From contig JBHLMN010000021.1 in the NCBI GenBank assembly GCA_048938105.1, positions 41,699-105,698 of the forward strand: 64,000 nt of DNA, written 5' to 3'. Below the pieces are notes generated by a model that saw nothing but the letters and a program-made list of their open reading frames with translations, was not told where the DNA came from and searched no databases. The DNA is from Promethearchaeota archaeon. GTDB lineage: Archaea > Asgardarchaeota > Heimdallarchaeia > Hodarchaeales > Hodarchaeaceae. A program made the position numbers and the translations under genes. Shown piece by piece: positions 35,302-54,976 of the stretch (position 1 is the first letter of the stretch; each line of letters begins with the position of its first letter).

Positions 35302-37041
35302 CTATAGTGTTTTGATTATTTTTTCTTCATTAGGAGTTATCTTGTAGATTGAATATACTGTTTCATTAATATATACTTTTAATTGTTTGAGTACTTCATA
35401 ATTAATCATTATCTTTTTATATTGTGCATTTTGTAGACCTGATATTATGGGAGAATTTGAGACTCGTGATAAATGGTGAAAGAGTCTCTTATAATTTTGA
35501 AAATCGCTTTTTCTCTGGTTAAATAGAGGAAACTTGCCTTTTTTCATTATTTGATCTAAATGAGTTTTTAATTCTCTCCCAGTCTGTTGATATTTAAAAT
35601 AAATTTCACCTAAGGTATAGAATTTTTCAATAATCGGTAGTGAATTTATTTGCTTCATTATTTCTTCATAGTTGTTTTCTTCAAGAAGTTTTTTCAGCTT
35701 TTTTCGATACACATGGTTTTTTGATCCAGAAATATGCGGAATCCTTATTGAATTTATATAAGCTCTGTCAAAATCTTTGCTGGTTACAAATTCTTTCACA
35801 TAAACGGCATGACGAAGCCACCATGCAATAAATGATGATTCTAGTAAACCTGCAACGGCATAAAGGGATATTTTTTCTCTTGAATAATTTGGAATGATGT
35901 TGATTACAGTTTCATTAGTTAAGATTTCACCTTCTCGATCGACCCAAGTTTTTAGGTCTAAAGAATAACTGGGTTTTGTATGATAGGATATTATCCGTTG
36001 CGCAATGATTTTCGGTATTTTTAATCGTTTGAGTTTTTGTTTTGGGGTCTTCTTATGTAAAAAATTTCGTCTTGGAAATAAAAAGCCAGATGAAATGGTA
36101 GACTTTTCTACTAGTGGAATGTTTCCATCTTTTGAACGGTATTTGCTACTCAATCCTCGAAAAGCAAGTACATTCAAAAATTCATGATCCTTACAATAAA
36201 TCCGCCGAATAATCTCCAATTCAGAGGCACTCACTCCTACCAGAAGATTTTTTACCATTAATGCGTCAAAGTTTGAAATTAAACTTATTTGTCCAAAATC
36301 CTTATCAATTGGATTCCAGATTCCAGTTTTATACTTATAATGTTGACCATCTAAATTCTCTTTTTTGACTATTATAGCACACTGTTCTTGTAATTGACCT
36401 GAGAATTGATTTCCAAGATCAAGAACTTCGACTAATTTGTAGTCAGTTAAAAGAATTTTTCTGAACTCAACCCATCTTTTGGAATAGATAATAGGTTTTG
36501 GTAACAAAAAACAGAGGATACCTCCAACTTTCAAAAGAGCTAGAGATTTTAAAGTAAAGAATATGGAACTTTCGGAGTAAATTTGACGATTCCATCCAAA
36601 ATGGCAATTTTTTCGAATTTGTGTCCACTCAAATTGTGAATAAAGTGCATTATGAGGGGGATTCCCAATAATGACATCAAATGTTCTTGGTAGGTCTGAA
36701 GGGTAATCTAAAAGAAAGTCTCCCAGTTTTAGTTCAAAATCTAAAGGAAATCTTTGATTTAACTTATTTAATTTATCATTAGTAATCTTCACTAAAGAAG
36801 AATCTATATCTAATCCATACATTTTCATAGAATAGACTAATGAGGTAATCAATGGAATTAGAATCTGAAAAAAAATCCCTTTGCCAATTGCAGGATCTAA
36901 AACTGTTATTGGTTTTTTTTGATAATCATTTGGAAAGTAATATGTTATATGGCTTAGAAGCGCCTCCACTAATGTTTTGGGGGTAAAGTATTGTCCCCTG
37001 GCTTTCCTTTTACTGTTATTATCTTTTATTCGAACTCTTAT
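35302..37041 (-). CDS. N6-adenine methyltransferase-like protein with NPPH motif IV; start extended to putative ATA 37041
   Basis: LDPAIGKG and FDVIIGNPPH. The in-frame upstream extension encodes SKRKARGQYFTP (motif X), which the ORF track omits (it starts at GTG 36969). Confidence 0.8.
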   Translation of the reverse strand: MRVRIKDNNSKRKARGQYFTPKTLVEALLSHITYYFPNDYQKKPITVLDPAIGKGIFFQILIPLITSLVYSMKMYGLDIDSSLVKITNDKLNKLNQRFPLDFELKLGDFLLDYPSDLPRTFDVIIGNPPHNALYSQFEWTQIRKNCHFGWNRQIYSESSIFFTLKSLALLKVGGILCFLLPKPIIYSKRWVEFRKILLTDYKLVEVLDLGNQFSGQLQEQCAIIVKKENLDGQHYKYKTGIWNPIDKDFGQISLISNFDALMVKNLLVGVSASELEIIRRIYCKDHEFLNVLAFRGLSSKYRSKDGNIPLVEKSTISSGFLFPRRNFLHKKTPKQKLKRLKIPKIIAQRIISYHTKPSYSLDLKTWVDREGEILTNETVINIIPNYSREKISLYAVAGLLESSFIAWWLRHAVYVKEFVTSKDFDRAYINSIRIPHISGSKNHVYRKKLKKLLEENNYEEIMKQINSLPIIEKFYTLGEIYFKYQQTGRELKTHLDQIMKKGKFPLFNQRKSDFQNYKRLFHHLSRVSNSPIISGLQNAQYKKIMINYEVLKQLKVYINETVYSIYKITPNEEKIIKTL

Positions 37042-39176: not shown

Positions 39177-41777
39177 ATGTTCCGATTATATTCAAGTTTA
39201 AAACCTTTTTACGAAAGATTTCTCCAGAGAGGTCAGTCTTATGGACTATCTTCTCATGAAATCCATGAAATGGCCTTAAACTATTTTATTAAATTTCTAG
39301 GGGTGATTATATTAACATCATGGGAGAGTCGGAACACCAACAATATGATTTTACTCGCAAATACTCGTAAAATTAGAATGTCAATTCATGAAATTTTATT
39401 TCAGAAAGATAGTCAGAGTGTGCAACTCTTCATAAACGGAATACCTTCCATACTCCAGGAGATACTCGAATTATCACATCAAGAGGCCCAATTTAAAGAT
39501 TCATTAACATCTGAAGAGTGGGATGAACTCATAGAGTTACTTCTTGCAAATCAATGGACGATAGCTGAAACTTTTAAAAGTGTCAAAGGGAACGAAAAGC
39601 AAATTTCTCCTGAATTTCTTTCTTATTTTTATGAAAATGTTCTAAATGATTTTGAAAATTTTTTCAGTTTAACTCCGAAAGTATCTAAGAGAAAACATAA
39701 AGGGGTTTATTATACTCCTTGGCGTATCATCCGTGAGATTACAGATAAGTGTCTAGACCACTATGAGTCTAAAAATTCTCAACTGTCTCAAAGTAAGGGG
39801 AAGTATATAAGAATCCTTGACCCAAGCTGCGGAACAGGGTCATTTCTTGTTTATAGTGCAGAAAGCCTTTATCAACGATTAAAAAGGAATATTAATCCAA
39901 ATATTTCTCCTTACAAAATTGTTGAATGTTGTATTTATGGGACAGACCTTTCTTCAAGTAGTTTAACAGTTGCCAAAATTAGATTATTGTTTTGGATTCT
40001 TAATTTAAACCCTAATACTTTAGGTTCACTTCCCTATTGGCTATTTAGAAACATTTGTGCTGGAAACAGTTTATTCGGGCTTTGTAAAGAGAGAATTCAA
40101 TATCCTCTGGACTATTCTACAACTCTTTCACGAATCAACTTGTATTTAGAGACAGATTATGAAAAGAAACATGATGAATTTACTGGAGTAGATGAAAACT
40201 GGCTTAAATCTAGTCTTAGAATCAAACAGGCAAAAACTAAGCATCTGTCTTCTAATTCACATCTAAATGTGATTCACAAAGCAGAGAAAGAGCTTTCATC
40301 TCTCGTAAATACTTTTTATCAGAATTGGTTAGAAAATCGGATACGTAATTATCCACGTCCCGTCCCTCTAAAGAGAAAGGAATTAGACACAATCATTCCA
40401 TTTCATTGGGGAATATCATTCCCCGAAGTGATTCTACAAGGTGGATTTGATGTAATAATAGGAAATCCTCCCTATGGAAGATCAATCCTTTCAAAATTGG
40501 AAAAATCTCTGTTGAAATTAGTGTATAAATCATGTTCGGGTCAAAATCCTAAAAAGTATAGCTTAAATGCTGCCAGCGCTTTTGTTGAAAGATCTATTAC
40601 TCTTTTAAGACAATACGGAACATTAGGTTTAATTGTACCTTTCTCTATTCTAAGAGTAGAGGAATTTGAAAATCTGCGTCATTTTATTCTAGAAAGAACG
40701 ATGATCTGGAGAATTGATGATGAATCAGCTGCTTTTACTGATGTTACTTTAGAAATGTGTTCTATCTTCTTATTTAAGAGAATTGAACCTGATTATGAAG
40801 TTTCCATTAGTCCTCGACCAGAAATTAATGCAGAACCAAGTGTTCATATCAGTGTTTTCAAAAAATACAGCCGCTATATGATCTATTACAATAATTTATG
40901 GGATAAAGCAGCCAGTCAAGGGTTGGTCATGAATGGAGTTGTAAGTGGTGACTACGGAATAGACCACAGAATTTTAAAAAAGGACTTAAGTTCAAAATTT
41001 ACCCCAAAATACCCTATTTGTTACTTACACTCTGGACGAAGTGTGGTAAAATTTGCATTAAATCCTCAGTATTTCCAGTGGTCAAAACCTCATCCAACTA
41101 ATGAACGTTTTACAACTTATTTTCGAGAACCTCGTCTAGTGACTACAGCTATCGGTAATCGATTTAGAGTCGCTTATAAACCAGAAAAAATTGTACCAGG
41201 TACCAATGTTTCTATCTTAGAGATTGGAAATTCCTATCACTACTTTCCTATGCTTATTCTATTAAATTCTGATCTTATAAATTATCTTTTAAAGAGATAT
41301 ATTCTTAATTTTAGTCACTTAACAGTTTATCTTCATAAGTATTATACAAAAATGCTTCCAATTAAATATCCTCGAGAATTTGAAGAGGAATTCAAAATCC
41401 TCGCTAGTTATCTTATTTTTCTCAATCAAGCTAATCTCTGTGGGAAGTTATCTACTGATAAACGATTTGAATTTATATTTAACCTAGCAAATTATTTGGT
41501 TTTTGATCTTTATTTCCCAGAAATTCTAGGGATTTCTTCAAATTTAGCGGTTAAAGTTAGAAAATATTTGAAACCCATTGAAATAGAGTCCTTTCTTGAT
41601 CTAATCCTCTTTCAGGAATCTGAAACTGATCCAAAAATGTTATCACGGATAATTAGTTCTAATTGGAGGATTATTCGCCATGTCTCCAATCGGTTGAGAG
41701 ATGATGAGGAAGTACATCAGTATAAAAAGACTATATTTAACCATGAAATTGTAAGATGTATTCGTAAAGAGCTTTAA
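39177..41777 (+). CDS. Large N6-adenine methyltransferase (Eco57I/TaqI-like)
   Basis: RKHKGVYYTP, LDPSCGTGSFL, GNSL, FHWGISFPEV, GFDVIIGNPPY. Confidence 0.9.
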   Translation: MFRLYSSLKPFYERFLQRGQSYGLSSHEIHEMALNYFIKFLGVIILTSWESRNTNNMILLANTRKIRMSIHEILFQKDSQSVQLFINGIPSILQEILELSHQEAQFKDSLTSEEWDELIELLLANQWTIAETFKSVKGNEKQISPEFLSYFYENVLNDFENFFSLTPKVSKRKHKGVYYTPWRIIREITDKCLDHYESKNSQLSQSKGKYIRILDPSCGTGSFLVYSAESLYQRLKRNINPNISPYKIVECCIYGTDLSSSSLTVAKIRLLFWILNLNPNTLGSLPYWLFRNICAGNSLFGLCKERIQYPLDYSTTLSRINLYLETDYEKKHDEFTGVDENWLKSSLRIKQAKTKHLSSNSHLNVIHKAEKELSSLVNTFYQNWLENRIRNYPRPVPLKRKELDTIIPFHWGISFPEVILQGGFDVIIGNPPYGRSILSKLEKSLLKLVYKSCSGQNPKKYSLNAASAFVERSITLLRQYGTLGLIVPFSILRVEEFENLRHFILERTMIWRIDDESAAFTDVTLEMCSIFLFKRIEPDYEVSISPRPEINAEPSVHISVFKKYSRYMIYYNNLWDKAASQGLVMNGVVSGDYGIDHRILKKDLSSKFTPKYPICYLHSGRSVVKFALNPQYFQWSKPHPTNERFTTYFREPRLVTTAIGNRFRVAYKPEKIVPGTNVSILEIGNSYHYFPMLILLNSDLINYLLKRYILNFSHLTVYLHKYYTKMLPIKYPREFEEEFKILASYLIFLNQANLCGKLSTDKRFEFIFNLANYLVFDLYFPEILGISSNLAVKVRKYLKPIEIESFLDLILFQESETDPKMLSRIISSNWRIIRHVSNRLRDDEEVHQYKKTIFNHEIVRCIRKEL

Positions 41778-42012: not shown

Positions 42013-43113
42013 ATGAGAAAAGATGTTAGAGTATTTTTAATAGATGATTCTGCAGTTGTACGACAACAAATCTCTCAAATGATAAAGAGAAGTCAAAAGA
42101 ATATATCTGTTGTTGGAACCGCAATGAATGGACGAGTAGCATTAGAAAGAATGATGCTTCCTCGGAACAAATCTGATGTTATAATAACAGATATCGTTAT
42201 GCCCGAAATGGATGGAATAGAAACAATTAATCATATTATGGATCGATTTCCCACACCGATAATCGTCATTTCTGCTTTGAGAAGAAAAGAGGAAATTGAT
42301 GTTGCATTATCAGAGTTAGGAGTATCTGCTTTCGAATCTGGGACTGTGGAGTTTGTTCGAAAACCAAACCCTGATGATTCAGAAGATAAAAAACGATTTG
42401 AAAAAGAACTGATACACAAAATTATTAGTCTTTCAAAGATTGATTTCCTAAAAATCTTCTCAATTTTTAACGTGGAATCGTTATTAAAAGAAGACTCATT
42501 AATTAAACCACTATTAAAAGAGCCTCCAAAAGCTATATGGAAAAAACATAGGGCAAAAATCATCGTTATTGGAGCCTCGACAGGAGGTCCAAGAGCCATC
42601 TCAATGATTCTATCAATGTTGCCCATTAATTTTCCACCAATTCTAGTTATTCAACATATGCCTGGGGGTATGGTTAAACCTTGGGTTTGTAGGTTACAAA
42701 AAACATACCCAAATTTAAAGATCCGTGTTGCAAGAGATGGGCGTATTTTAGAGCCTAATTGCATTTATATCGCTCCTTCAGGTAAACATTGCTATATCAA
42801 CGAGAGGAAGAGAATTCAGTTAAAGGATGGAGAAAAAGTCAATTTTGTTATTCCGGCAGCAGATGTGACCTTTAAATCAGCAGCAATGGTTTTTAGAGAG
42901 AATACTCTTGGAATCATTCTCACAGGGATGGGACAAGATGGATGTAAAGGTGCAGAACATATTAAAATTGTTGGCGGGAAAATTATTGCAGAAGATGAAT
43001 CTACAAGTGTTATAAATTCTATGCCAAAAGCAGTAATTGAGGCAAATCTAGCTGATAGAATTTCCCCTTTGTATAAAATTCCAAATACAATCCGTGGGAT
43101 AGGCTGGATCTAA
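42013..43113 (+). CDS. cheB: Chemotaxis response regulator protein-glutamate methylesterase
   Basis: REC (IDDS, DIVMPEMDG); catalytic GASTGGP, QHMP, TGMGQDG. Confidence 0.95.
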   Translation: MRKDVRVFLIDDSAVVRQQISQMIKRSQKNISVVGTAMNGRVALERMMLPRNKSDVIITDIVMPEMDGIETINHIMDRFPTPIIVISALRRKEEIDVALSELGVSAFESGTVEFVRKPNPDDSEDKKRFEKELIHKIISLSKIDFLKIFSIFNVESLLKEDSLIKPLLKEPPKAIWKKHRAKIIVIGASTGGPRAISMILSMLPINFPPILVIQHMPGGMVKPWVCRLQKTYPNLKIRVARDGRILEPNCIYIAPSGKHCYINERKRIQLKDGEKVNFVIPAADVTFKSAAMVFRENTLGIILTGMGQDGCKGAEHIKIVGGKIIAEDESTSVINSMPKAVIEANLADRISPLYKIPNTIRGIGWI

Positions 43114-43116
43114 TCT

Positions 43117-44313
43117 TTAATCCCTTCGAATATAGATTCTATTATGAGCATCGATGATCTCGAACTTTTTCCTAACCTTTGGAGGAAGAAGTTCACATTT
43201 TCCAAGCACTAAATACCCATGAGATTTTAGAATGGAATGAAATCGTTGAAAAAGGGAAATACTTTGAGATCTTGAGAAATATATCAAAACATTTCGGCAC
43301 ATAATTAAGTCAAAATTCTTAGCTGGAGGCGGAGATCGAAGATCGTGTTTCTTAAACGTAACTGTCTGTCTTATTTCAGGTGATAATTCAAAAATCCCTT
43401 TATCTATAGATTTAAAAAAAGTTTGAATTTCTAATGAATCCATTTCACATAAATAATCTTTTGTATAACGTCCTTGTTTTGCCTTTTTTAACAATTCTTG
43501 CGAGATATCAGTGGCAAGAATATGTACATTCTCATTGATCGTTTCTTTGAAAAATTTACTTATCACAATCGCAATACTATAGGGTTCAGGGCCAACTGCA
43601 CACCCTGCACTCCAAATTCTAACTGATTTCGAATCTTTTTGTAAAAGACTAGGAAAAATGTCCTGCTCTAGTTTATAAAATAACTCTTTATCACGAAAAA
43701 AGCGAGTAACGTTTACAGAAAGGCAATCAACAAGTAAATTAAGTTCTTCGGGATTTTTCTCAAGATATTTAAGATAATCTCTATAAGATTGGAGTTTAGC
43801 TCTTTTTATTCTAATCTGAAGGCGTCTAAGGAAGTAATTTTTCTTATAAGCCTGATAATTAATATTCTTAGTAGAAAGAAATTTCATTATGGAAGGAAGG
43901 AATTGAGGATCATCTGGTTCCTTGATTTCAAAAAGGAATTCTTGGATCTTTGATGTGTCGAATTTTCTCTGTTTCGTTTTAGTTTTCTTTTTTGGCTTTA
44001 TATTTCTTGTATATTCTTGTAATCTTTTTTTCCTTTTTCTAGAAGGAGTATATGGTTGATTAATGTAATAATTTTTATTATTCAAGCATGATAATATGTT
44101 TTCACAAATTTCCTGATTATTCCTAGCGTGATTAAGCATACTAGAATAATTAGTAAACCCCATCTTTCTCCGAATAAATTTCAAATTCTTTTTTATGTTA
44201 TCTTCATCTTGGAGGATATAATCTTCCTTTTTTTGGCGGAGGAATCTTATTAGCTCTTCTAGACCCTCATTTGATTCTAAATCAACGGTAAACTTCTTAT
44301 AACTGTTCTGCAT
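43117..44313 (-). CDS. cheR: Chemotaxis methyltransferase with duplicated N-terminal domain
   Basis: NVTRFFRD, IWSAGCA.G.EPYSIA, ATDIS, DLIMCRNVLIYF, GYLVLG..E. Confidence 0.95.
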   Translation of the reverse strand: MQNSYKKFTVDLESNEGLEELIRFLRQKKEDYILQDEDNIKKNLKFIRRKMGFTNYSSMLNHARNNQEICENILSCLNNKNYYINQPYTPSRKRKKRLQEYTRNIKPKKKTKTKQRKFDTSKIQEFLFEIKEPDDPQFLPSIMKFLSTKNINYQAYKKNYFLRRLQIRIKRAKLQSYRDYLKYLEKNPEELNLLVDCLSVNVTRFFRDKELFYKLEQDIFPSLLQKDSKSVRIWSAGCAVGPEPYSIAIVISKFFKETINENVHILATDISQELLKKAKQGRYTKDYLCEMDSLEIQTFFKSIDKGIFELSPEIRQTVTFKKHDLRSPPPAKNFDLIMCRNVLIYFSRSQSISLFQRFHSILKSHGYLVLGKCELLPPKVRKKFEIIDAHNRIYIRRD

Positions 44314-44438
44314 TGTTTTATATCCTAGTTTTCAACCATTCATCAGTTTCTTAAGGATTCTCTATCAAATGTTGAAAATACAGCAGATATTCTCAGAAAT
44401 GTGAATCAATCCTTCTAATTCTCATCAAAATAGTTAAT

Positions 44439-45083
44439 TCAGAATTCTTCTCCAAACAAGGCAATCATGAATTTTTCAAAAGTTTCTAGATGAGGTACAA
44501 TTGCTAGATCGACAGTGATATTTCTTTCTGAAGTAAAAACATCACATTCAATGAACAAGACTGAAGTTATATTTTTTCGTATATCATTCAATTCATGTTC
44601 AGCACAAGAAACAAGAGTACCTATGCGTAGTTTGGGCGGTGAAGGGAATGAATTCGCCTTTAGAAAATAGTTTAAAGCTTCAATATATTTTAATGATAGA
44701 ATTGAACCAGTTTCCTTTATTAAAGACCTGTATAGAGGTGGTATGTCCCCAATAGTGTTAATCTCACCCTCGGGTTGAGAAGTCATGAGTCCGATTATTT
44801 TCAAAACGCTTTCTCTATCAAAAAAAACTAGGAGAGTATAGAGTATATCACTTACGGTAGTTGAAGATATAATCGCTAATTCTTGATCCATTGGCATCCC
44901 AATTATTTCAGGAATATCCTGTAATTGCTGAACTGCAACTTTAGGAATACTCATGTAGGTAGCTCGGTTTAGAAATTGTGTTAAGGCAATTGCTGCGTGT
45001 CCTGCACCAATATTTCCAACTTCTTGAAGAGCATCTAGATGATAATCTGATAATTTTTCAATTTTGTAATGTGTTTCATGCAA
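44439..45083 (-). CDS. cheC: CheC family CheY-P phosphatase
   Basis: DALQEVGNIGAGHAAIAL; second site SLIKETGSI (N replaced by S); PSPP. Confidence 0.9.
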   Translation of the reverse strand: MHETHYKIEKLSDYHLDALQEVGNIGAGHAAIALTQFLNRATYMSIPKVAVQQLQDIPEIIGMPMDQELAIISSTTVSDILYTLLVFFDRESVLKIIGLMTSQPEGEINTIGDIPPLYRSLIKETGSILSLKYIEALNYFLKANSFPSPPKLRIGTLVSCAEHELNDIRKNITSVLFIECDVFTSERNITVDLAIVPHLETFEKFMIALFGEEF

Positions 45084-46977
45084 GAACTTTCGCCTCCAAG
45101 AAATTCATTGGATCGATTATTAACACTACCTTCCCTCCTTCTAACACTGTCGCACCTGAGAATGCGCCTACTTGACTAAGAAAGTTTTGAATGGGTTTCA
45201 TAACGACATCACGTTCTCCTAATAATTCATTAACAAGGAATCCCATACTACGGTTCCCTTTTCGCCATAAAACTACAATCTCTTTCTGCAAATCCTTAAA
45301 ACTTGAAGAGCGAACTTTCTCACTATCAGGCTTTTCTTGTGATGAATAAAACTTCAAACGATCACGTAAGTCTATAATAGGAACAGAAGAATTATCAACT
45401 ATGATCGATTTAGCTGAGGTCATAGAATCTACAAGTATTTTACTAACTGGAACAGAAAGAATTTGTTCAATATTAGCCATTGGAATTGCAAACTGGTGTT
45501 TTTTTACCGATAACATCAGAACTTTCGTAATAGCGACTGATAATGGGATAACTAGGCGAAATGCTGTGTACTTTCCAGGTTCAGAATCTACCTCAATATT
45601 TCCTCCCACTGACTCCATGGTTCCTTTTACAACATTCAATCCTACCCCTCTGCCTGATATTTCAGTCGTTTCGTCCGCAGTAGAAAAGTTCTTATCAAAA
45701 AGTAAAGCATGAATGTCATTCTTCCCTAGAAAGGTTCCAGGAATAATTAAACCTTGGTTCTCTGCCTTTTCTCTAATTTTATCATAATCAATACCTCGGC
45801 CATTATCCCTAACCTCAATAATGATATCTGAGCGTTCATGAGTCACGGTGAGCTTAATAGTTCCCATAGGATCCTTATTCTTCTTGACTCGCTCTTCAGG
45901 TGTTTCTATTCCATGACTGATTGCGTTTCGTAACAAATGATTAAGCGGATCGACCAATTTTTCGATAACCGAACGATCGACTCCTATATTTCTACCACTA
46001 ATGAGAAAATCAACATGTTTTCCTTCTTTCTGGCTTAAATCACGAATCATTCTTGGAAATCGTGTGAGAATGGTCTCTAGTGGAACTAGTCGCATTCTAA
46101 TAACTAGATCCTGTATGTTAGCAATAGTCCGTTCAAAATTAGACAGATTCTCTTTAAAGGATCTAGAATAAGCTTGTTGCTCTCCTATTTCCCTGATAAA
46201 TTGCCCAGAAATTACAAGATCGCCTAGTAAACGGATAATATGATCTAAATCTTCAAGATTGACCCTGACGGTTAAAGCCTCTTGAGCTTCTTCCATTTTA
46301 CCAGCTTTTTCAGTAGCGGTAACTGATTCTAAAATTCGTGATATATTGACAGATACAACATCAGGTGCTTCTTCCACGATTTGACTGATGACTTCTTCAT
46401 CCTCTTGAGTAGTTATCTCAATGATAAACTCTTTAAATGAAGCCCCTGTTTCAATTTCTTCAAGAGAAGGCTTAGTACTGCTAATAGTTGCTTTTTCTTG
46501 CAGTTTTTTTATTAGAACAAGACTCCTTGCGCCAACAACTTTACATTCAGGACTATAAAGAACCCTGATCTGAAGTTTGCTGCCCAAATTTATTATGAAC
46601 TCATCAATTGAAGCCATTTGTTGCGTCAATTCATCAAAACGGAGTAGTTCAGGACTTTGGCCTCCTTTTAGGGAGCTTGCGAGTCTTTCTAGTTCATCTA
46701 CAAATATAAACAAGAGTTTAATGACTTTAGAAAAATCCTCTCTGTCTGTATCAATTACTAGATTTTCCATACTATGGGTTATAGAACTGATTTTCGGAAA
46801 TCCTGATAATGAAAAAAGGCCTTTGAGATTGTGCAGCACTCGTAGAATATCATCATATGGTTCTTTCTTCATTGGATCCTTTTCTAGAATCAATAATCCT
46901 GAATTTAATTCCTCAATTCTTTCAGTTAACTCTAGAATCATGACCTTTTTGAATTCTTCCGACTCAAATTCGCTCAT
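45076..46977 (-). CDS. cheA: Chemotaxis histidine kinase
   Basis: HPt LHNLKG, RLVP, HLLRNAISHG, DNGRG, FST, SGRGVG, C-terminal CheW (P5) domain. Confidence 0.95.
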   Translation of the reverse strand: MSEFESEEFKKVMILELTERIEELNSGLLILEKDPMKKEPYDDILRVLHNLKGLFSLSGFPKISSITHSMENLVIDTDREDFSKVIKLLFIFVDELERLASSLKGGQSPELLRFDELTQQMASIDEFIINLGSKLQIRVLYSPECKVVGARSLVLIKKLQEKATISSTKPSLEEIETGASFKEFIIEITTQEDEEVISQIVEEAPDVVSVNISRILESVTATEKAGKMEEAQEALTVRVNLEDLDHIIRLLGDLVISGQFIREIGEQQAYSRSFKENLSNFERTIANIQDLVIRMRLVPLETILTRFPRMIRDLSQKEGKHVDFLISGRNIGVDRSVIEKLVDPLNHLLRNAISHGIETPEERVKKNKDPMGTIKLTVTHERSDIIIEVRDNGRGIDYDKIREKAENQGLIIPGTFLGKNDIHALLFDKNFSTADETTEISGRGVGLNVVKGTMESVGGNIEVDSEPGKYTAFRLVIPLSVAITKVLMLSVKKHQFAIPMANIEQILSVPVSKILVDSMTSAKSIIVDNSSVPIIDLRDRLKFYSSQEKPDSEKVRSSSFKDLQKEIVVLWRKGNRSMGFLVNELLGERDVVMKPIQNFLSQVGAFSGATVLEGGKVVLIIDPMNFLEAKVLA

Positions 46978-47040
46978 CGGTTCACAACCTTATTCAGAAT
47001 GTCTTAACAGGTATTGGTCACTAGCCAATTCCTTGGGAGT

Positions 47041-47400
47041 TCAGTTAAGAGCTCCTTCAACAGCTTGGACTAATTGGTCTACTTTGAATGGTTTTATTAC
47101 AAAATCTTTGGCACCAATTTTCAAGGCTTGTCGAACCAGGGGTTCATGTCCTAGTGCTGTAACTATTACAATTCTTGCCTTTGGATCCATTTCCATGATT
47201 TCTTTGACAGCCATTAACCCATTCATCTTTGGCATTACAACGTCCATAGTCACAACATTTGGCATATTTTGCTTGTATTGCTCAATTGCTTCTAAACCTG
47301 TCTCGGCTTCAGCTACAACCGTATGTCCATGTTTCTTTAGGATTTTCCGAATCATCAGCCGTAGATATTTTGAATCATCTACAATCAATACTTTTGCCAT
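47041..47400 (-). CDS. cheY: Chemotaxis response regulator
   Basis: VLIVDDS, MDVVMPKMNG, TALG, FVIKPF. Confidence 0.93.
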   Translation of the reverse strand: MAKVLIVDDSKYLRLMIRKILKKHGHTVVAEAETGLEAIEQYKQNMPNVVTMDVVMPKMNGLMAVKEIMEMDPKARIVIVTALGHEPLVRQALKIGAKDFVIKPFKVDQLVQAVEGALN

Positions 47401-47402
47401 AT

Positions 47403-50400
47403 TTATTCAATCCTTTCTTTTACCTTTTTTACTAGTGTATTTAGATTCTTTTCAGTTAACATTTTTGTTATGAACTCGTTTTCAATAATATATACTGGTA
47501 ACGAGATACTTTCATCTGTAAACATATTTTTACAAACCTTTTTTCCCTCCAGAAAAATATTTGTACTTTCACAAGGAATTAAATCTTCCTTGAATTTTGT
47601 TACTACCCCAATGATATTAATAGTAGGAACAAGGAAAGCTTGACTTTGATGTTCAAGTAAAATGAAATATTTACTCTTACTTAATTCTGTTCGTTTTTCA
47701 ACTCCTAAAATTAACGCTGCTATATCAATGATAGGCAACCTGACATTATTAACCGATGTGATACCTAAAATCGGATGATTTTCTAAATCAATATTTTCTA
47801 TAGAAAGAGAAGAATGCACACTTCGAACGAATTCAATATCGAATGCAAGAAAATTCTGCTGCAATCTAAAGGCGAAAAAATCCAAACGAATCCCCTTCTG
47901 ACGATAAAATAATATTAATTCCAGTTCTTTTCGTCTTTCTCTGATTGTTTCAAGTTTTTCTATTTCATCAGGTAATAGTCTTGATGGAAATTCCTTCTTG
48001 ATGTTCTTTATCAACAGTACATTCCGAAGTAAGATATTAGTTTCCTCAATTAGAGCTGTTGGACTCATAATCATACCAAGTGCGCTTTGATATGAAAAAA
48101 AACCAGAAATAATTGGTGAAAGTGCCTTAGCTGAAATTCCCAATTCTGTTTGAAAAGATTCGAAATTTTGGACAAGAATTTTTCTTATTACATTATCTAC
48201 AAGGAATACTACTTCTATATTCTTCTTGACGTCACTGATAAGAATCCCAACAGCCTTTTTTGGTTTATTATACTTAGTTGGTTTTCCTCTCAAAATATAG
48301 CTAAAATTGATCAGGGGTACAATATCAGTATGTATTGCTGCTCCTAGTATTGCTTCATGAGAAAATTCTTTGTATAGAAGATCATCTTGGTTGATCACTT
48401 GCACAACATAAGTTGAATCAATGAAGAAAGTCAAACCTTCATCCTCAAATAGAAGCCCTTCTTCATTTGTTTCAAGTTGATACAAGGATTCATAAACTGG
48501 ATTTTTAAAGTGAAAGACTTGAGTACTTTCCTGTTCCAGAATAATAGGATTATCAGCTATTTGAAAAAGATACTCAATGTTTAATACGAGAATGATCTGT
48601 TCAGCTTGATTTATTAAGATACTCTTCAGATAATGAATGGAGTCTCTACCATTATTTACCTGTTCAAGTATGGGATGGAGATTAGTCTCGTCTATCTCAA
48701 TAATTTCTTGAATTTCATCTACAAAGAGGGCAATCTGTTGACCTTTAGCCTTAATGATTAAAACTAAAACGTCTGTATTTAACAAAGCACTATCTTCATG
48801 GATATCTGTAGAAGAAGGAACCAATATTTCTGCTAGATCTAAAGCACAAAGAACTTCACCTCGGAAGTTAATTGTCCCAACAATGGCTTTGGGTGAATTA
48901 GGTACCTTGGTAATGTTTGTAACATTGAAGATTTCAACAATATAACTGTTTGGAACCAATATGTTGAAATTATGAACTGAAACTATCGTTCCTTTAGATT
49001 TGGTTTTCTGGGGGAAAATAACTGGTTTTTCAGTACTTCTACCTAGATTAAATGCTGGAGTAGAGAGATTCTGTCGGAGGTCGATATTATATTCTTCAGA
49101 ACTCTTTGATAATTCCATAGGAGCAAATAATAGCTTATTTTCTTCAATAAACTGATTATGTGATTGTTCCAAATCAAAAATAAGCTGATCGAAGACTTTC
49201 TCATGTTTAATCAGAACTACAATCTTATTATCATATCTAAAAGCTTTATTAAAGTATAAACACTCTCTTGAACTTGTTAGATTGACTAGATCAGTAATTT
49301 GCGATCCTTCAGGTATTTCAATAGATCCCAAGACACTTTCAACTTTAAAAATGATTTTTTTACCTTCATGATCCAATGCAATGTAACTTTCTCGTTTTTC
49401 CAGAGACTTGGAGGTCACAAGTTTCGAATTCTCGCTATAAAAGAATAATTCTAGATCGATTACAGGGACAACCTCACCACGAAATGTAGTAGAACCTATA
49501 AAATAGCGAACAGTGTTGGCCAATGGAGTAATTGTTAATGTCTGGAGAATTTGAATTACGGTAGTACTCATCAAGGCATAATTATCCCCTAATAATGTAA
49601 TCAAGACAAGTTTTTCACCAAGAGTGGTTTCATTAGTGATCCTCATCTTTGAGGTTACGCCTTGAATGGGGGTGTCAAAGAGAATAATTTTGTTGAAATC
49701 CTGTTTTAATACTACAGGATTAGCAGCAACTTGGAGAAGATAATCTACATTTAACACTAGAATCATATGGCCCGAATGGTCGAGCATGACACCTTTGAAA
49801 TAGTAATCAGAAGTTATATCAGTGGAAGAAGTAAAGATTGGTCGAAGTTCAGCCTCAGCTATCTCAACTATTTCCTGAATCTCGTCAACAAGGAGAGCAA
49901 CCTGTTCATCAGCAATCTCAAGAATTAAAGCCTCAATATCCGTATTATGATACATTTCTGACTTTTTATTATCAGTAGAATTGGGTATCAGTATTTCTGA
50001 TAGGCTTAAAGCACTAATGACGTTACCACGAAAATTAATTGCACCTACAACAGCTTTTGCTGCATTAGGTACCTTAGTTAAACTTTGAATGTTAAAAATC
50101 TCGACAATGTGATCGTTTGGAACCAAGATATCTAAACCCCGAACCGAAATCACCGTTGCCGTCTTTGTACCTCTTCGACCACTACCAACTATTTTTCTAA
50201 TACCCAAATTAACAGTAGCTGGGACTGGTACCGAGGATTTCTGTCCAAGGCCGATATTATATTCTTCAAGACTCTCTGGTATTTCTATAGGAGTAAATAA
50301 TATTTGATTTTCTTCAATAAACTGATTTTGTGATTCCTCTAACTCATAGATGACTCGATTGAGGATTTGATTAAAGTCAAGAACAACAATAATTTCACCA

Positions 50401-50840
50401 TTATTATGAAGAAATGCCTTATAAAAATAAGGATTTTCTTCAGGATTTGTAAAATTTACTAAATTTGTAACTTGTGAATCCTCAGGCATTTCGAGGGATC
50501 CCAAGACACTTTCAACTTGAAAAATGATTTTTTTACCTTCATGATCTAATACGACGTAACTTCTATTTTCGTTTCGTATCTTTGAATTTATTACAAGTTG
50601 TCCGCCATAAAAAAATGATTGTAAGTCGATAACGGGGACAACTTCACCACGAAAAGTGGAGGAACCAACAAAATAGTGAACATTGTTGGCTACTGGCGTA
50701 ATTGTTAGTGTCTGGAAGATCTGGATGACGGAAACACTCATCAAAGCATAATTATTTCCGTATAAAGTAAAGAGGAGAAGGTTATCTTTGATCTGAGTTC
50801 TAATTTTTTCAATTATTTTAGATCGTGATATAACATTCAC
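47403..50840 (-). CDS. cheW: Polyprotein of six CheW-like domains
   Basis: FRGEVVPVIDL (x2), NFRGNVISAL, NFRGEVLCAL, AIHTDIVPLIN and NNVRLPIIDI; no other domain type seen. Confidence 0.85.
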   Translation of the reverse strand: MNVISRSKIIEKIRTQIKDNLLLFTLYGNNYALMSVSVIQIFQTLTITPVANNVHYFVGSSTFRGEVVPVIDLQSFFYGGQLVINSKIRNENRSYVVLDHEGKKIIFQVESVLGSLEMPEDSQVTNLVNFTNPEENPYFYKAFLHNNGEIIVVLDFNQILNRVIYELEESQNQFIEENQILFTPIEIPESLEEYNIGLGQKSSVPVPATVNLGIRKIVGSGRRGTKTATVISVRGLDILVPNDHIVEIFNIQSLTKVPNAAKAVVGAINFRGNVISALSLSEILIPNSTDNKKSEMYHNTDIEALILEIADEQVALLVDEIQEIVEIAEAELRPIFTSSTDITSDYYFKGVMLDHSGHMILVLNVDYLLQVAANPVVLKQDFNKIILFDTPIQGVTSKMRITNETTLGEKLVLITLLGDNYALMSTTVIQILQTLTITPLANTVRYFIGSTTFRGEVVPVIDLELFFYSENSKLVTSKSLEKRESYIALDHEGKKIIFKVESVLGSIEIPEGSQITDLVNLTSSRECLYFNKAFRYDNKIVVLIKHEKVFDQLIFDLEQSHNQFIEENKLLFAPMELSKSSEEYNIDLRQNLSTPAFNLGRSTEKPVIFPQKTKSKGTIVSVHNFNILVPNSYIVEIFNVTNITKVPNSPKAIVGTINFRGEVLCALDLAEILVPSSTDIHEDSALLNTDVLVLIIKAKGQQIALFVDEIQEIIEIDETNLHPILEQVNNGRDSIHYLKSILINQAEQIILVLNIEYLFQIADNPIILEQESTQVFHFKNPVYESLYQLETNEEGLLFEDEGLTFFIDSTYVVQVINQDDLLYKEFSHEAILGAAIHTDIVPLINFSYILRGKPTKYNKPKKAVGILISDVKKNIEVVFLVDNVIRKILVQNFESFQTELGISAKALSPIISGFFSYQSALGMIMSPTALIEETNILLRNVLLIKNIKKEFPSRLLPDEIEKLETIRERRKELELILFYRQKGIRLDFFAFRLQQNFLAFDIEFVRSVHSSLSIENIDLENHPILGITSVNNVRLPIIDIAALILGVEKRTELSKSKYFILLEHQSQAFLVPTINIIGVVTKFKEDLIPCESTNIFLEGKKVCKNMFTDESISLPVYIIENEFITKMLTEKNLNTLVKKVKERIE

Positions 50841-50903
50841 CTCTTTTTTTTTAAAACATAAATCTTTTTCGTGTCAAAATCCTCTAATATTATATCCTCA
50901 ATC

Positions 50904-51857
50904 TTATTTTACTTCTTTTTTTGTCTTCTTAATCTTGTTCTTCTTCTTAGATTTCTCTACTTCTCTTTTATCCGCTTCAACTACATTATTCTTATCAGCT
51001 TCATCAGTTTTCTTGGTTCGTTTTGTTTTTTCTCCTTTCCCCTTTTTTTTCAGGTCTGTTTTGGCATTGTCATCTTTTTCAGGTTTTTTGACTTCTTTAA
51101 CATCATTATTTTTATCAATTTTCTCTTCTACATCTTTTTCCTTTTTTTCTCTCCCTCTACTTTTTACTTCAGCTTTGTCAAGGACTGTCTGATCAAATTC
51201 ATCAATTAATTGATTTTCTGGCAAATTAAGTTGGTTCATTTCAAGATCAGAAGTAGATCCTGAAGAAAAATCTGACATTTCATCTGAATCTGGTAATGTG
51301 TATTGATCAAAATCAAAGTCCTCTTCTTCATCAGCTTTTTCATATTTCTTAGAAGACTTTTTAGGTGCAATAAAACCTCCTAGAAGACGTTTTAAATCCA
51401 AAATGTAGACTTTTTGTTCATTATTTAAAAAGCCAATTTGAGAAATCAATGATGGATTTAACAGCTCTCTTCCTTGGAAATACGACTCATTTACAGTTTC
51501 AAAGTCAGTAATTGTATCTAGCTGATGGATTTGATCCACTAAAATACCCACATCTTGTTCTTTAATTGTTAGCAGTAGTATAACTTTACGTTTGCTAACA
51601 TTTTTGGCTGAATTTTTGCTTTCTTTATGAGATTCTTTCCCCCAAAGTAGTACTGAAAGATTGAAAATACTTACAATATAACCACGAAGATTTACTATTC
51701 CTTCCAGAACGGCAGATGTCCTGGGAAGCTTCAAAATATTTTCTGATTGAAATACTTCTTTTAAATATTGGACTTCAAGACCGTAAAGGTCATTAGAAAT
51801 TCTAAAGATTAGATATCTGTCTCCTTTTGTCTTTTTATTCTCTATTGCAGTTGTCAT
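50904..51857 (-). CDS. cheW: CheW with long acidic then lysine-rich C-terminal tail
   Basis: YLIFRI...YGL, LEGIVNLRGYIVSIFNL, VGILVD; ATG 51857 follows AGGTGAT. Confidence 0.9.
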   Translation of the reverse strand: MTTAIENKKTKGDRYLIFRISNDLYGLEVQYLKEVFQSENILKLPRTSAVLEGIVNLRGYIVSIFNLSVLLWGKESHKESKNSAKNVSKRKVILLLTIKEQDVGILVDQIHQLDTITDFETVNESYFQGRELLNPSLISQIGFLNNEQKVYILDLKRLLGGFIAPKKSSKKYEKADEEEDFDFDQYTLPDSDEMSDFSSGSTSDLEMNQLNLPENQLIDEFDQTVLDKAEVKSRGREKKEKDVEEKIDKNNDVKEVKKPEKDDNAKTDLKKKGKGEKTKRTKKTDEADKNNVVEADKREVEKSKKKNKIKKTKKEVK

Positions 51858-52596
51858 CTGAAACATCACCTTTTACATCTTTAAAGCGTGAAAAAATTGA
51901 GAAAAAATTCTTCATTGTTGATGTTTTTTCTGTTATGATTTGTTGAGTGGTTCCTGAGTATTCGGATTTGAGATACGTAGAATCAGTTTCTTCCATTGTA
52001 AAGAGCTCTTTTTCTATTAAAGCATCTAAATCTAGATCTTCATCTTCTGAAAACATGGTTGTTGTTTCTAAGACAATATTATCAACGATCCTTCCTAAAT
52101 CTGGGAAGATAGACATGTTTGGACCGTCTAATGATTCATCAGAAACAACAATGCTTACTGCATCAATAGGAGCATTAGACTCATACAGTGGTAATGCTAT
52201 CATCATACGGATAGTTTCAAAAATCCGAGAAGAGAGTTCATTTATGATTTCTATAAAATTACGAGAGGTTATCATATTTACTGGAAAATTACCTATAGTA
52301 AGTAAACAAACTAAATCTTTATGGCTTCTAACAAATATACGAGATCCTTCCCGAATACCAATGTCATTAAGTTCCATATTATTCCCAATCATCTCTCCAA
52401 ATTGCACGATAGCTGCCATCAATCCAGCAATCAGAGTTGGATCTTTAGTAGAAGTTTGTTTATATACTCTCGAGAAAATTGGGAGACCACTACTCTTATT
52501 TAATAGAAGAATCTCATAGACGGAAAAGGGAGAGCTTATATCCTTCCGTTTCTTATTAATTCGATCAATTATTCGTCCAGCTTCTATTTCTAGCAC
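51835..52596 (-). CDS. Longin/roadblock-like domain protein at the head of the che operon
   Basis: ILLLNKSSGLPIFSRVY...DPTLIAGLMAAIVQFG matches the Asgard longin-like signature; 3' end overlaps the cheW start; acidic C-terminus. Confidence 0.65.
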   Translation of the reverse strand: MLEIEAGRIIDRINKKRKDISSPFSVYEILLLNKSSGLPIFSRVYKQTSTKDPTLIAGLMAAIVQFGEMIGNNMELNDIGIREGSRIFVRSHKDLVCLLTIGNFPVNMITSRNFIEIINELSSRIFETIRMMIALPLYESNAPIDAVSIVVSDESLDGPNMSIFPDLGRIVDNIVLETTTMFSEDEDLDLDALIEKELFTMEETDSTYLKSEYSGTTQQIITEKTSTMKNFFSIFSRFKDVKGDVSDDNCNRE

Positions 52597-52979
52597 CCCA
52601 ATGGCCTCAATACCTTTTAAACCTTGGATTGAGTTAAAATTTTGTCTCTTCTGCGATTTTAAATTGGGTACGTTATTATGACTGTTCTTCAGCTTATGTG
52701 GTGAGATTCAAAGCGGAGGTAGCTATTTTAATAGTTCTTACAAATACTTCTCTTAAACCTATAGATTTAATATATGTTATTTTTATATCTATAATAATAT
52801 GAATTATATTATAATATAAAAACATTCACTAATAAGTATCTCTCCCTCCCTAAATATCTTTAGTTTCTCATTTACAATCTAAAAGAAGGAATAAAGTTAG
52901 AGTCATTCAAAAATATCCATAAAATCTCTGAATTAATCTACTTATATAAAAATCCTAAACATTTGAAACATTTAAACGA

Positions 52980-54077
52980 TTAGATCCAGCCATGTTTTTT
53001 AATTGTCAATGGAATATTATGTAATGCCACAACTTCATCAGCTAACTCTCCTTCAACAATAGCTTTTGGCATAGCATAAATTACTGAAGTTGATTCGTGT
53101 TCAGCGAAAATCTTTCCTCCTACTGCTTTAATTTTCTTAGCTCCATTGAAACCATCCTTTCCCATACCAGTAAGGACGATTCCAAGTATATTTTCTTTGT
53201 AAACCTTTGCAGCTGTTGCAAATGTGATATCAACAGCAGGAATTAAGAAATTTACTCTCTTATCGACATATATTCGAAAACTTCTTCCCTTGTTGATAGC
53301 ACAATGTTTTCCTCCTGGGGCTATATATACTCGATTTGGTCTTATTTTTTCACTGTCTTTGGCAATTTCGATTTTTAAGTGAGGGTATAAACTTTGTAAC
53401 CTTTTTACCCATGGATCCACCATTGCTTCAGGCATATGTTGAACAATTATAATTGGAGGGAATTTTGAGGGAATTTTAGATAGAATAAGTGAGATTGCTC
53501 TTGGGCCTCCTGTTGAGGCTCCAATCACTATCAATAAGTCTTGAAACTCTTTGGGAACTATTTTAGGTCTCTTTTTTGGATAATATTCATCAATTTCTTC
53601 TTCTTGTAAAAAAGATTTGAAGTCAAAACCTGAATAAGCACGTGTTAAATTAATTTGAGATAGATTGAGAATCTTATAAATAAGATCCGATTTGAAGCGT
53701 TTTATATCCCCTTGAATTCTCGAATCAGGTTTTTTAACGAATTCTACAGCTCCAGATTCAAAAGCAGACATACCTAAATTTGTGAGTGAACGATTTACTT
53801 CTTTTTTAGTTAATCCAGAAACAATTATTACAGGAATTGGGAACCTATCCATTATATGACCAACAGTCTCGAAACCGTCCATTTCAGGCATTATGGCGTC
53901 TAAAAGAACTACATCAGGTTTATATTTTGGGAGAGCTATTTTCATTAAGGCGATTTTCCCATTAGGAGCTCCTCCAATGACTTTTATATTCTTATCGCTA
54001 TCTTTAATCAATTTAGAGACTTGATGCCGCACAAATGCAGAATCATCTACTAAAAAAACTCTTATTTCCCTTTTCAT
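52980..54077 (-). CDS. cheB: Second chemotaxis methylesterase
   Basis: VDDS, DAIMPEMDG, GASTGGP, QHMP, TGMGKDG; close paralog of 42013-43113. Confidence 0.95.
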   Translation of the reverse strand: MKREIRVFLVDDSAFVRHQVSKLIKDSDKNIKVIGGAPNGKIALMKIALPKYKPDVVLLDAIMPEMDGFETVGHIMDRFPIPVIIVSGLTKKEVNRSLTNLGMSAFESGAVEFVKKPDSRIQGDIKRFKSDLIYKILNLSQINLTRAYSGFDFKSFLQEEEIDEYYPKKRPKIVPKEFQDLLIVIGASTGGPRAISLILSKIPSKFPPIIIVQHMPEAMVDPWVKRLQSLYPHLKIEIAKDSEKIRPNRVYIAPGGKHCAINKGRSFRIYVDKRVNFLIPAVDITFATAAKVYKENILGIVLTGMGKDGFNGAKKIKAVGGKIFAEHESTSVIYAMPKAIVEGELADEVVALHNIPLTIKKHGWI

Positions 54078-54217: not shown

Positions 54218-54976
54218 CTAATAAAAACCTTCAATAAAAGAACGGACGTTTTTACCGAGAACATTATGATTATATCCCCCTTCTAAAACAGAAAACCTTT
54301 TACTATCACATCGTTCTTTTGAAAAGCTTTTGATGATTTTACCTATAGTATAATAATCTTCAGTCGTTAATAAACCTCCCCAGTCATCTTCATGCCTATC
54401 AAAACCTGCTGAAACGCCAATTAAATCCACTTTTGTAGTATTATTACAAAAATCTCTCACATTTTGGATAAATTGAGTTCTAGTCCCCCCTTTAACATGA
54501 TAATAGACAACTTCAGGTAAAGTAGAGAATGTATTACTGGTACCATCCCCAAAATGCATATCAAAATCGATGATTGCAGCTTTGCTTATTTTTTTGTCTT
54601 TTAAGAGCCTTTTAATTCCGATAGCAATATTATTGAAATAACAAAATCCCCAAAAACCTTCAGGGCTCGCATGATGCCCTGGTGGTCGGATAAGAGCAAA
54701 CATCGCTTCACGATACTTACATGTATATTCACCAGCAAGAATTGCTCCTCCTGCAGCAAGTAATGCCATAGGATAGACTTGTCTTGACCCCTTTACGCGT
54801 GAAAGGTGTTTTTCAGTATGAACTAGCAAAATATCTTTATCTTGCGATGGTTTGGGATTTATAAATTTATAATCGTACAATTCTTTAATAATAGCTTCCA
54901 TTCGACCTGCATCAGCCGCAGGATCGGACGTATAGACCTTATAAAAATCTTCATGAAATATAACTTGTTTTTTCAT
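54218..54976 (-). CDS. Histone deacetylase/AcuC family Zn-dependent deacetylase
   Basis: RPPGHHA, GFCYFNN, DFDMHFGDGT, SAGFD, LEGGY. Confidence 0.93.
   Translation of the reverse strand: MKKQVIFHEDFYKVYTSDPAADAGRMEAIIKELYDYKFINPKPSQDKDILLVHTEKHLSRVKGSRQVYPMALLAAGGAILAGEYTCKYREAMFALIRPPGHHASPEGFWGFCYFNNIAIGIKRLLKDKKISKAAIIDFDMHFGDGTSNTFSTLPEVVYYHVKGGTRTQFIQNVRDFCNNTTKVDLIGVSAGFDRHEDDWGGLLTTEDYYTIGKIIKSFSKERCDSKRFSVLEGGYNHNVLGKNVRSFIEGFY

Follow-up and report, generated by a model that had tools for sequence, protein, structure and literature searches.

What does a small protein with the predicted fold of a eukaryotic longin do at the head of a chemotaxis operon in an archaeon? The question is raised by a stretch of 64,000 nucleotides (the window, positions 41699-105698 of contig C36) from a Promethearchaeota archaeon of the family Hodarchaeaceae, in which a gene for a protein of 253 residues, here called Lng, precedes and overlaps cheW within a cluster of che genes between 42013 and 54077. 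The source genome (labelled G000) comprises 5.85 Mb in 65 contigs, with completeness rated 99% and contamination 7%. Lng is found only in relatives that have che genes, and is therefore probably a new accessory part of the chemotaxis pathway; that it functions in this pathway appears likely to us. The more specific role favoured here, because Lng is coupled to cheW and has an amphipathic tail, is that of a membrane-associated accessory adaptor of the CheW/CheA array, to which we assign a probability of about 0.45.

An earlier note on this DNA had described a co-oriented run of Lng, cheW, a gene with six CheW domains, cheY, cheA, cheC and cheR between two cheB paralogues. A Pfam scan recovered every gene that it named, with Lng as an open reading frame (ORF) lacking a family, at the following positions.

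42013-43113, plus strand: cheB paralogue 1, receiver plus methylesterase (Pfam CheB_methylest 8.2e-52, profile positions 1-174 of 174; Response_reg 2.5e-17)
43117-44313, minus strand: cheR (Pfam CheR 2.4e-54 at residues 201-390; CheR_N at residues 150-188)
44439-45083, minus strand: cheC, family of phosphatases of phosphorylated CheY (Pfam CheC 2.2e-7; NCBIfam CheC_Thtogales 5.1e-26, below cut-off)
45076-46977, minus strand: cheA (Pfam Hpt, P2, H-kinase_dim, HATPase_c and CheW)
47041-47400, minus strand: cheY (Pfam Response_reg 1.1e-30; best NCBIfam match CheY_Halo)
47403-50840, minus strand: multi-CheW protein of 1145 residues (Pfam CheW 4.6e-89, five stretches)
50904-51857, minus strand: cheW, 317 residues (Pfam CheW 4.2e-17 at residues 15-159, long charged tail after the domain)
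51835-52596, minus strand: Lng, 253 residues, GTG start (no Pfam or NCBIfam family; longin domain from structure models)
52980-54077, minus strand: cheB paralogue 2, upstream of Lng (Pfam CheB_methylest 1.5e-51; Response_reg 3.9e-15)

The gene ends are tight and operon-like, with cheA and cheC overlapping by 8 nucleotides and only 2 nucleotides separating the multi-CheW gene from cheY. CheA, CheW, the multi-CheW protein and Lng are each single-copy in the genome according to blastp against its ORFs, and Lng is the sole operon gene without a known family. The best NCBIfam match of cheA is CheA_Halo (375 bits, below cut-off), and residues D8, D9, D53, T81 and K103 of CheY are invariant in 12 orthologues. 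The two CheB proteins of the window are 54% identical, and paralogue 1, which is convergent with cheR, has an orthologue at the equivalent position in two loci of relatives (L003 and L004).

Lng and cheW share coding sequence. The ATG of cheW (51857-51855) sits 23 nucleotides inside the Lng ORF, whose stop codon lies at 51837-51835, and the likely ribosome-binding site of cheW is embedded in Lng as well.

51865-51870, minus strand: GGTGAT, Shine-Dalgarno-like site for cheW within the Lng coding sequence, read from the sequence, 7 nucleotides from the ATG at 51857

The MTT start of cheW is backed by an alignment of CheW orthologues, and the ORF list also contains an alternative GTG start at 51869. 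Both the 23-nucleotide overlap and the embedded Shine-Dalgarno site had been pointed out in the earlier note and can be read directly from the sequence, and the residues that it quoted from the Lng translation, SGLPIFS..DPTLIAGLMAAI, are present there.

The placing of Lng ahead of cheW also holds across relatives. Twelve distinct Lng loci were compared, namely the window, L003-L012 and L029, while L019-L028 repeat the same genomes. In nine of the 12, Lng is directly followed by cheW, the multi-CheW gene, cheY, cheA and cheC, with a Lng-cheW spacing of -23 to +8 nucleotides between the first in-frame start codons, and these nine loci span 57-100% identity; in L011, Lng and cheW are separated by cheB alone. 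The two che clusters of a single genome (L008 and L010) each contain a Lng copy of their own. The upstream neighbour of Lng is cheB in seven of the 12 loci, a gene for a methyl-accepting chemotaxis protein (MCP) in one (L006, immediately adjacent), a Ras-family gene in another (L005), and unrelated genes in the remaining three. In two loci (L007:5627-5855 and L009:9950-10133) the N-terminal third of Lng is in frame, but the stretch from the preceding stop codon to the first internal Met contains none of the start codons ATG, GTG and TTG. Gene callers have therefore shortened these Lng proteins to 183-198 residues (likewise the entries of 185 residues); the real start in both is probably an ATH codon.

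How far, then, does Lng follow the che genes? A word-indexed search returned 52 Lng homologues, the few named ones being labelled Heimdall-, Hod- or, in one case, Thorarchaeota, and an exhaustive profile search of 1.84 billion representative proteins gave 36 matches at E<=1e-3 and seven at E<=1e-10. Across 82 genomes of the class, orthologues (E<=3e-92) are confined to the genus of the window, where they number 12 in 11 genomes, and the next best match in the class has an E value of 2.8e-11. In terms of sequence similarity, Lng is a narrow, genus-restricted family of orthologues. Within the genus (21 genomes), it is present in all 11 che-positive genomes and in none of the 10 che-negative ones, although these genomes are related, so that the 11-versus-0 pattern reflects few independent events. 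Matches to the CheW domain number 4-10 in each of the 11 che-positive genomes and in none of the other ten. Two further members of the genus show one weak, orphan CheW-like match, a gene that G000 also carries on contig C6. No genome with Lng but without che was encountered among the 82 searched.

Lng (P0001) matches no Pfam or NCBIfam family, including the curated longin families Longin, Fuz_longin_1 and Sedlin_N, and a profile search of the PDB returned nothing relevant. Among 27 Lng homologues, Fuz_longin_1 faintly matches five (best E 0.029, far below cut-off) and Robl_LC7 one (E 0.14). The fold was approached through two AlphaFold (AF2) models, model 1 built from 27 homologues (predicted local distance difference test, pLDDT, 59.8 overall and 70-87 in the core) and model 2 from 56 sequences (pLDDT 71.8, predicted template-modelling score 0.65).

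52048-52524, minus strand: predicted longin domain of Lng, residues 25-183, in the order beta-beta-alpha-beta-beta-beta-alpha-alpha

In model 2, strands at residues 25-33, 39-44, 78-81, 85-92 and 95-102 form a five-stranded antiparallel sheet in longin order, with helices at 53-70, 112-134 and 167-183. Model 1 has the same elements with a weaker third strand, and in both models the loop or insert at residues 135-166 (about 30 residues) is of low confidence and disordered. Foldseek places Lng in the roadblock/longin superfamily (E about 1e-4). In a fold search with model 2 (VIA-align, independent of Foldseek), ranks 1-32 are, by title, longin-domain chains or longin-containing complexes (Z 12.9-8.8, residues 19-186), with roadblock and MglB chains behind them (Z 8.1-8.5); model 1 gives the same order with a top Z of 13.2. 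Five of the longin matches are as follows.

TRAPP, 3cue_A: Z 12.9 with model 2 (root-mean-square deviation 2.6, 129 residues aligned) and 12.0 with model 1
Fuzzy, 7q3d_C: Z 12.5 with model 2 and 13.2 with model 1
Mon1, 9rs7_A: Z 11.9 with model 2 and 11.5 with model 1
Sedlin, 2j3w_A: Z 11.3 with model 2 and 12.3 with model 1
VAMP7 longin, 4afi_B: Z 10.9 with model 2 and 12.9 with model 1

The longin matches span residues 25-181 of Lng, whereas roadblock and MglB chains align only to residues 22-137 (Z 7.2-9.5 over the two models). Since longin chains outrank the roadblock and MglB chains and cover the whole domain, the assignment of a longin fold is well supported at the level of predicted structure, and roadblock, although of the same superfamily, fits less well. 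Roadblock/LC7 domains run alpha-beta-beta-alpha-beta-beta-beta and lack the two C-terminal helices. The longin domain that the earlier note had seen in this gene is borne out by the searches on both models, including the Foldseek check, while its description of the gene as eukaryote-like applies to the fold but not to the sequence, where Lng belongs to a small Hodarchaeales-specific family. The longin fold by itself says nothing about the function of Lng, and no function was gained from its structure neighbours in the ESM Atlas, which are Promethearchaeota clusters.

Outside the domain, an N-terminal helix (residues 2-17) is modelled with a pLDDT of about 50 (model 2), and an acidic amphipathic helix with conserved E195, L198 and E202 follows the longin domain at residues 190-204. 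Two further elements make up the tail.

51949-51984, minus strand: Lng tail motif DSTYLKSEYSGT (DSTYLxSEYSGT), residues 205-216, pLDDT 73-78 in model 2
51868-51924, minus strand: basic amphipathic C-terminal helix of Lng, residues 225-243, a helix in both models

In the 27 homologues the invariant residues concentrate in the longin core and the tail motif, in which T207, Y208, L209 and G215 are invariant and Y213 nearly so. The C-terminal helix is amphipathic in all 27 (hydrophobic moment of the best 14-residue window 0.51-0.91), and as modelled it is a possible anchor to the membrane or to a partner.

Longin-like domains are common in the class in other architectures, and several apparent relatives of Lng had to be set aside. 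The weak class-wide matches to the Lng profile (E 1e-9 to 1e-4) were rejected as orthologues, being tetratricopeptide repeat (TPR) proteins of about 680 residues with a C-terminal longin-like domain. The two that were examined (L032 and L044) have TPR repeats followed by a Fuz_longin_1-like C-terminal domain, and many weak matches are open frames of about 650-700 residues in che-less families of the class. A protein of 413 residues encoded between two MCP genes in G005, a genome of another family of the class, looks longin-like by eye, but profile comparison with Lng gave E 1.9e-4 over 34 columns and a probability of 47%. A protein of 352 residues encoded after Lng in L012 and L029 looks longin-like as well, but here the comparison yielded E 0.024 and a probability of 2%. 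Neither Pfam nor NCBIfam has a family for this protein (L012:9761-10819, L029:1378-2436). Inspected by eye, its N-terminus resembles a longin and its C-terminal half a receiver that lacks the acidic pocket; a 58%-identical homologue is encoded in G000 at C4:94797-95897. More distant small proteins (190-230 residues) from other families of the class have the longin core, a G..DNI..E helix and a similar tail in common with Lng. One of them (L049, from a different family of the class) comes after cheA-cheC-cheD in the same orientation, and others have no che neighbours.

Lng thus has a predicted longin fold, a narrow family, a conserved operon position, a translational overlap with cheW and a strict co-occurrence with the che cluster. 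In the favoured explanation it would be an accessory subunit, peculiar to this lineage, of the chemosensory pathway of Hodarchaeales; it would share its transcript with CheW, and the translation of the two would be coupled. Its most likely place would be the CheW/CheA baseplate of the array of receptors, where it would act as an adaptor: other proteins would dock on the longin domain, the tail helix would hold Lng to the membrane or to a partner, and the array would thereby be placed, stabilised or linked. Binding to array components, membrane attachment of the tail helix and any effect on signalling are what we infer from these features. Longin and sigma-adaptin domains bind short peptides, and the tail of CheW holds a conserved one.

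51288-51320, minus strand: acidic-aromatic motif DFDFDQYTLPD in the CheW tail, residues 180-190, shortly after the CheW domain, from an alignment of 11 orthologues

F181, D182, Q185, T187 and L188 of this motif are invariant in the 11 CheW sequences, while the rest of the charged tail is variable, and DFDFDQYTLPD occurs once in the whole genome. By analogy with other longin domains, the motif could be a candidate docking peptide for that of Lng.

Several points weigh against an array adaptor. The same motif is present in the CheW of G005, which has a che cluster of the same gene order (L056, with its two MCP genes and the intervening 413-residue protein upstream of cheW) but no Lng orthologue, so that Lng cannot be the only partner of the motif. 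The most divergent orthologues (L012 and L029, about 44% identity; two of the 12 loci) are encoded away from che genes, with the family-less 352-residue protein following Lng and the che genes of both genomes on other contigs. The closest solved relatives of the Lng fold are mostly found in GTPase-regulating or coat complexes and are not array proteins. The weak start codons (GTG here, and none of ATG, GTG or TTG in L007 and L009) point to low abundance, a poor fit for a stoichiometric lattice component. Finally, co-occurrence in 21 related genomes is not 21 independent events.

The earlier note had counted six CheW domains in the 1145-residue protein; Pfam counts only five, and a local hidden Markov model (HMM) finds six, of which four are clear and two degenerate (domain 5, residues 793-894, independent E 1.7e-6; domain 6, residues 991-1067, independent E 6.4e-5). 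The model was trained on the four strong multi-CheW domains together with the CheW and CheA-P5 domains, which makes the scores of domains 1-4 circular because those domains trained it; domains 5 and 6 were left out of the training. Orthologous open frames in relatives encode 751-1175 residues with about four to six CheW domains. As a speculation, a single chain of six CheW domains might in principle close one CheW ring of the array lattice.

The question of what feeds the array, and what it acts on, leads beyond the window. A domain scan of 45 of its ORFs (12 + 33 of at least 100 residues) revealed no MCP, CheD, CheF, archaellin or GTPase domain, in agreement with the earlier note, which had reported no MCP, cheD, cheF or archaellum gene within the 64 kb; the MCPsignal and CheD matches of the genome lie on other contigs. 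That no receptor is in view, as the note put it, is an artefact of the window, since in the whole genome two membrane MCPs are encoded on contigs C39 and C41: MCP 1 has 636 residues, a dCache-HAMP-MCP architecture and two hydrophobic segments, and MCP 2 has 389 residues and a multi-helix membrane N-terminus. In addition, cheD is paired with a second cheC on C27, and two more cheR genes are present on C14 and C53. The core signalling set of CheA, CheW, CheY, CheB, CheR, CheC, CheD and MCPs is therefore complete in the genome.

The output side differs. CheF, the adaptor from phosphorylated CheY to the archaellum switch ArlCDE, is encoded by an accessory gene of che systems that is specific to archaea (PMC9680633, PMC13705601). 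In the 99% complete genome CheF (PF04283) gave no match, with positive controls in three archaea, although a very divergent CheF could escape this search. Archaellin (PF01917) and Arch_fla_DE (PF04659, ArlCDE) likewise gave no match in the genome and were detected in the control genomes, so that the absence of CheF and archaellum genes that the earlier note had seen in the window extends, for recognisable CheF, ArlCDE and archaellin, to the whole genome. The same holds for the class. CheW-family genes are present in 32 of its 82 genomes, but CheF in none and archaellin above cut-off in only one, so that che without a recognisable archaellar output is the norm in the class and not peculiar to this genome. 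A complementary distribution of CheF and Lng in the class was considered and dismissed, since none of the 82 genomes has CheF. Like CheF, Lng is confined to genomes with che genes; however, it is no CheF by Pfam or NCBIfam match, a fold search gives longins only, and the binding of CheY that characterises CheF is for Lng hypothetical, in a genome without detectable CheF, ArlCDE or archaellin.

A type-IV-filament locus on contig C11 (C11:25244-33211, equivalent to L013:5244-13211) was considered as the specific output of the che system. It encodes an ArlI-like ATPase, closest to FlaI (NCBIfam 430 bits, cut-off 550), an ArlJ/UpsF-like platform split into two genes and pilin-like ORFs with weak matches to DUF7288, DUF7289 and DUF7262; archaellin, ArlCDE and CheF are missing from it. 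In 20 of the 21 genomes of the genus the ATPase is found at 90-98% identity, which makes it far more conserved than the Che proteins. As it occurs with or without che, the machine does not track the che system or Lng, and the locus was rejected as a che-specific output on these phyletic grounds.

The surroundings of the cluster bear on whether Lng belongs to it by function. The cluster is flanked by Eco57I-like methylase genes, a pair that is syntenic in L003 and L004, and altogether six genes of the Eco57I/N6_Mtase type (type IIG-like), some with TaqI_C, were noted in the 64 kb.

9164-10660: methylase gene
10632-13187: methylase gene
21458-23134: methylase gene
35302-36969: methylase gene
39177-41777: methylase gene, flanking the che cluster
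55058-57412: methylase gene, flanking the che cluster

The methylase set could represent an expanded paralogue family or mark a variable region. These flanks, and the presence of the cluster in 11 of the 21 genomes of the genus, fit a view in which Lng is one of the many Asgard longin or roadblock proteins, has a role outside chemotaxis (e.g., GTPase regulation) and rides as a passenger on a mobile island of che genes, the whole of which comes and goes together. As only 11 of the 21 genomes have the cluster, any gene inside it would co-occur with che, and Lng and the che genes are apart in two genomes. These two genomes retain their che genes, however, and the search returned no Lng without che. 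Moreover, the 23-nucleotide overlap with cheW, the cheW ribosome-binding site inside Lng, the tight Lng-cheW spacing kept in nine loci at 57-100% identity and the duplication of Lng along with the che cluster speak against a mere passenger, a view that we consider very improbable. Much the same low standing is given to the idea that the longin domain is a cytoplasmic sensor that feeds a metabolic or protein signal into CheW/CheA beside the two MCPs. The profilin-like alpha/beta sandwich resembles ligand-binding folds in shape, the genome has only two MCPs for eight CheW-type domains besides that of CheA itself, and Lng heads the operon and in L006 directly follows an MCP gene. Among its structure neighbours in the Atlas are also prokaryotic proteins in which a similar domain is joined to a receiver, helix-turn-helix or V4R domain, which are leads only (TM score 0.44-0.52). 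On the other hand, no ligand pocket or cofactor motif was identified in Lng, Pfam detects neither an MCP-like signalling domain nor methylation helices, and the best structural matches are longins of protein-protein interaction, not sensor domains.

Alternatively, Lng may work at the other end of the pathway, as an output adaptor that replaces the missing CheF, binds phosphorylated CheY (or CheA or CheC) and passes the signal to a non-archaellar effector such as a small GTPase or pseudo-GTPase, the cytoskeleton or the ArlI/ArlJ-like type-IV-filament machine. The lack of detectable CheF, Arch_fla_DE and archaellin in this genome, and of CheF throughout a class in which 32 genomes have CheW-family genes and one an archaellin, would leave room for such a protein. 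Lng is the only operon gene of no known family, its top structural matches are longin subunits of the Rab guanine nucleotide exchange factor (GEF) complexes TRAPP, Mon1-Ccz1 and Fuzzy, and an acidic amphipathic helix precedes its tail motif. Furthermore, the gene that immediately precedes Lng in L005, in the same orientation, encodes a Ras-family protein of 180 residues (L005:730-1272; Pfam Ras 1.3e-8, which exceeds the cut-off); its P-loop is degenerate by eye, with no recognisable GxxxxGK[ST]. A link to a GTPase was also the main idea of the earlier note. This neighbour is found in one of the 12 loci only, however; in G000 its orthologue lies at C42:68035-68586, and its paralogues number more than 20 and are scattered over the genome, with eight on contig C8. 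The scan of 45 window ORFs detected no GTPase, the ArlI-like ATPase occurs across the genus irrespective of che, Lng is coupled to cheW rather than to cheY, and a common fold proves no function. On balance an output adaptor appears unlikely. A more elaborate form of this idea, in which phosphorylated CheY or the array acts on a longin platform that regulates a Ras-like (pseudo)GTPase and hence protrusions, the cytoskeleton or surface filaments, with Lng as the missing output link of the CheF-less Asgard che systems, is improbable in our estimation.

Lng can be set beside several known systems. Eukaryotic longin proteins and Rab-GEF subunits (TRAPP Bet5/Trs23, sedlin and synbindin; Fuzzy; Mon1) have the same fold and order of elements as Lng residues 25-181, but identity is only 8-15% and no Pfam longin family scores over cut-off. 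Lng also differs from them in its disordered 30-residue insert, its own tail motif, its amphipathic helix and its location in a che operon, and it is known here without a partner GTPase, SNARE motif or complex partners. Closer in lineage, the Roadblock-Longin protein of Lokiarchaeota (8yqg) is of the same superfamily and phylum, and its longin domain aligns to Lng residues 21-186 (Z 9.5-10.9), while the Asgard roadblocks of Prometheoarchaeum and Thorarchaeota (9jue, 9jq8, 7yh1, 7f8m) align only to residues 22-135 (Z 7.2-9.2). In the literature the role given to these solved Asgard proteins is the regulation of small GTPases. In Myxococcus, the Frz chemosensory pathway acts on the MglA/MglB polarity switch, a mode of action that Lng would resemble if it were an output adaptor; the gene for MglB stands beside that of its GTPase and apart from frz. 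The likeness lies in a CheA/CheW/CheY-type pathway that is tied to a protein of the roadblock-longin superfamily and controls something other than a rotary motor. However, MglB (6hjm and 3t1r among the fold matches) is a roadblock, which Lng matches less well (Z 8.4-9.5), the che cluster of Lng contains no GTPase, and the GTPase link rests on one locus.

Chemosensory systems of Asgard archaea have been described from several sides, and the following is taken from the available parts of the sources. Cryo-tomography has revealed putative chemoreceptor arrays, and 27 of 97 metagenome-assembled genomes were found to contain che genes (PMC9834061). Asgard genomes contain scattered parts of type-IV filaments and archaella, with CheF in some (PMC13705601). 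Surface filaments are described in cultured Hodarchaeales, with no mention of chemotaxis in that part of the text (10.1101/2025.02.26.640444), and another source names GTPase regulators of the longin and roadblock types and, separately from these, genes for chemotaxis and the archaellum (10.1101/2025.07.22.663070). Within the portions of the literature that were searched, no description of a longin gene inside a che cluster was found, and none of the solved Asgard longin or roadblock proteins is reported in one.

A few neighbouring features complete the description of the locus.

54218-54976, minus strand: short gene of the histone-deacetylase family, 252 residues (Pfam Hist_deacetyl 2.2e-42), adjoining cheB paralogue 2

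This gene is found at the same place in L003, L004 and L011, and is a syntenic neighbour of the che system that is not assigned to it as a member. The N-terminal extension of the CheR of the window (about 150 residues, 1-149) matches no family. All three CheR paralogues of the genome carry extra segments, the one at C14:213325-214899 a 270-residue N-terminal extension and the one at C53:14799-15821 a C-terminal C2H2 zinc finger. Elsewhere in the window (13431-15845), a protein of 804 residues consists of a receiver domain followed by several PAS domains (up to four stretches by Pfam), with no recognisable output domain.

To conclude, Lng, which is che-only, coupled to cheW and of longin fold, provides a concrete handle on what the che systems of Asgard archaea control, and would be among the few Asgard proteins of eukaryotic-signature fold with a defined pathway context. 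Even if it is only a scaffold of the array, it would still add a new accessory part to a signalling machine that has been studied very thoroughly. If the output reading were true, a two-component sensory front end of bacterial type would be connected to a longin/GTPase back end of eukaryotic type, and this in the lineage of archaea nearest to eukaryotes.

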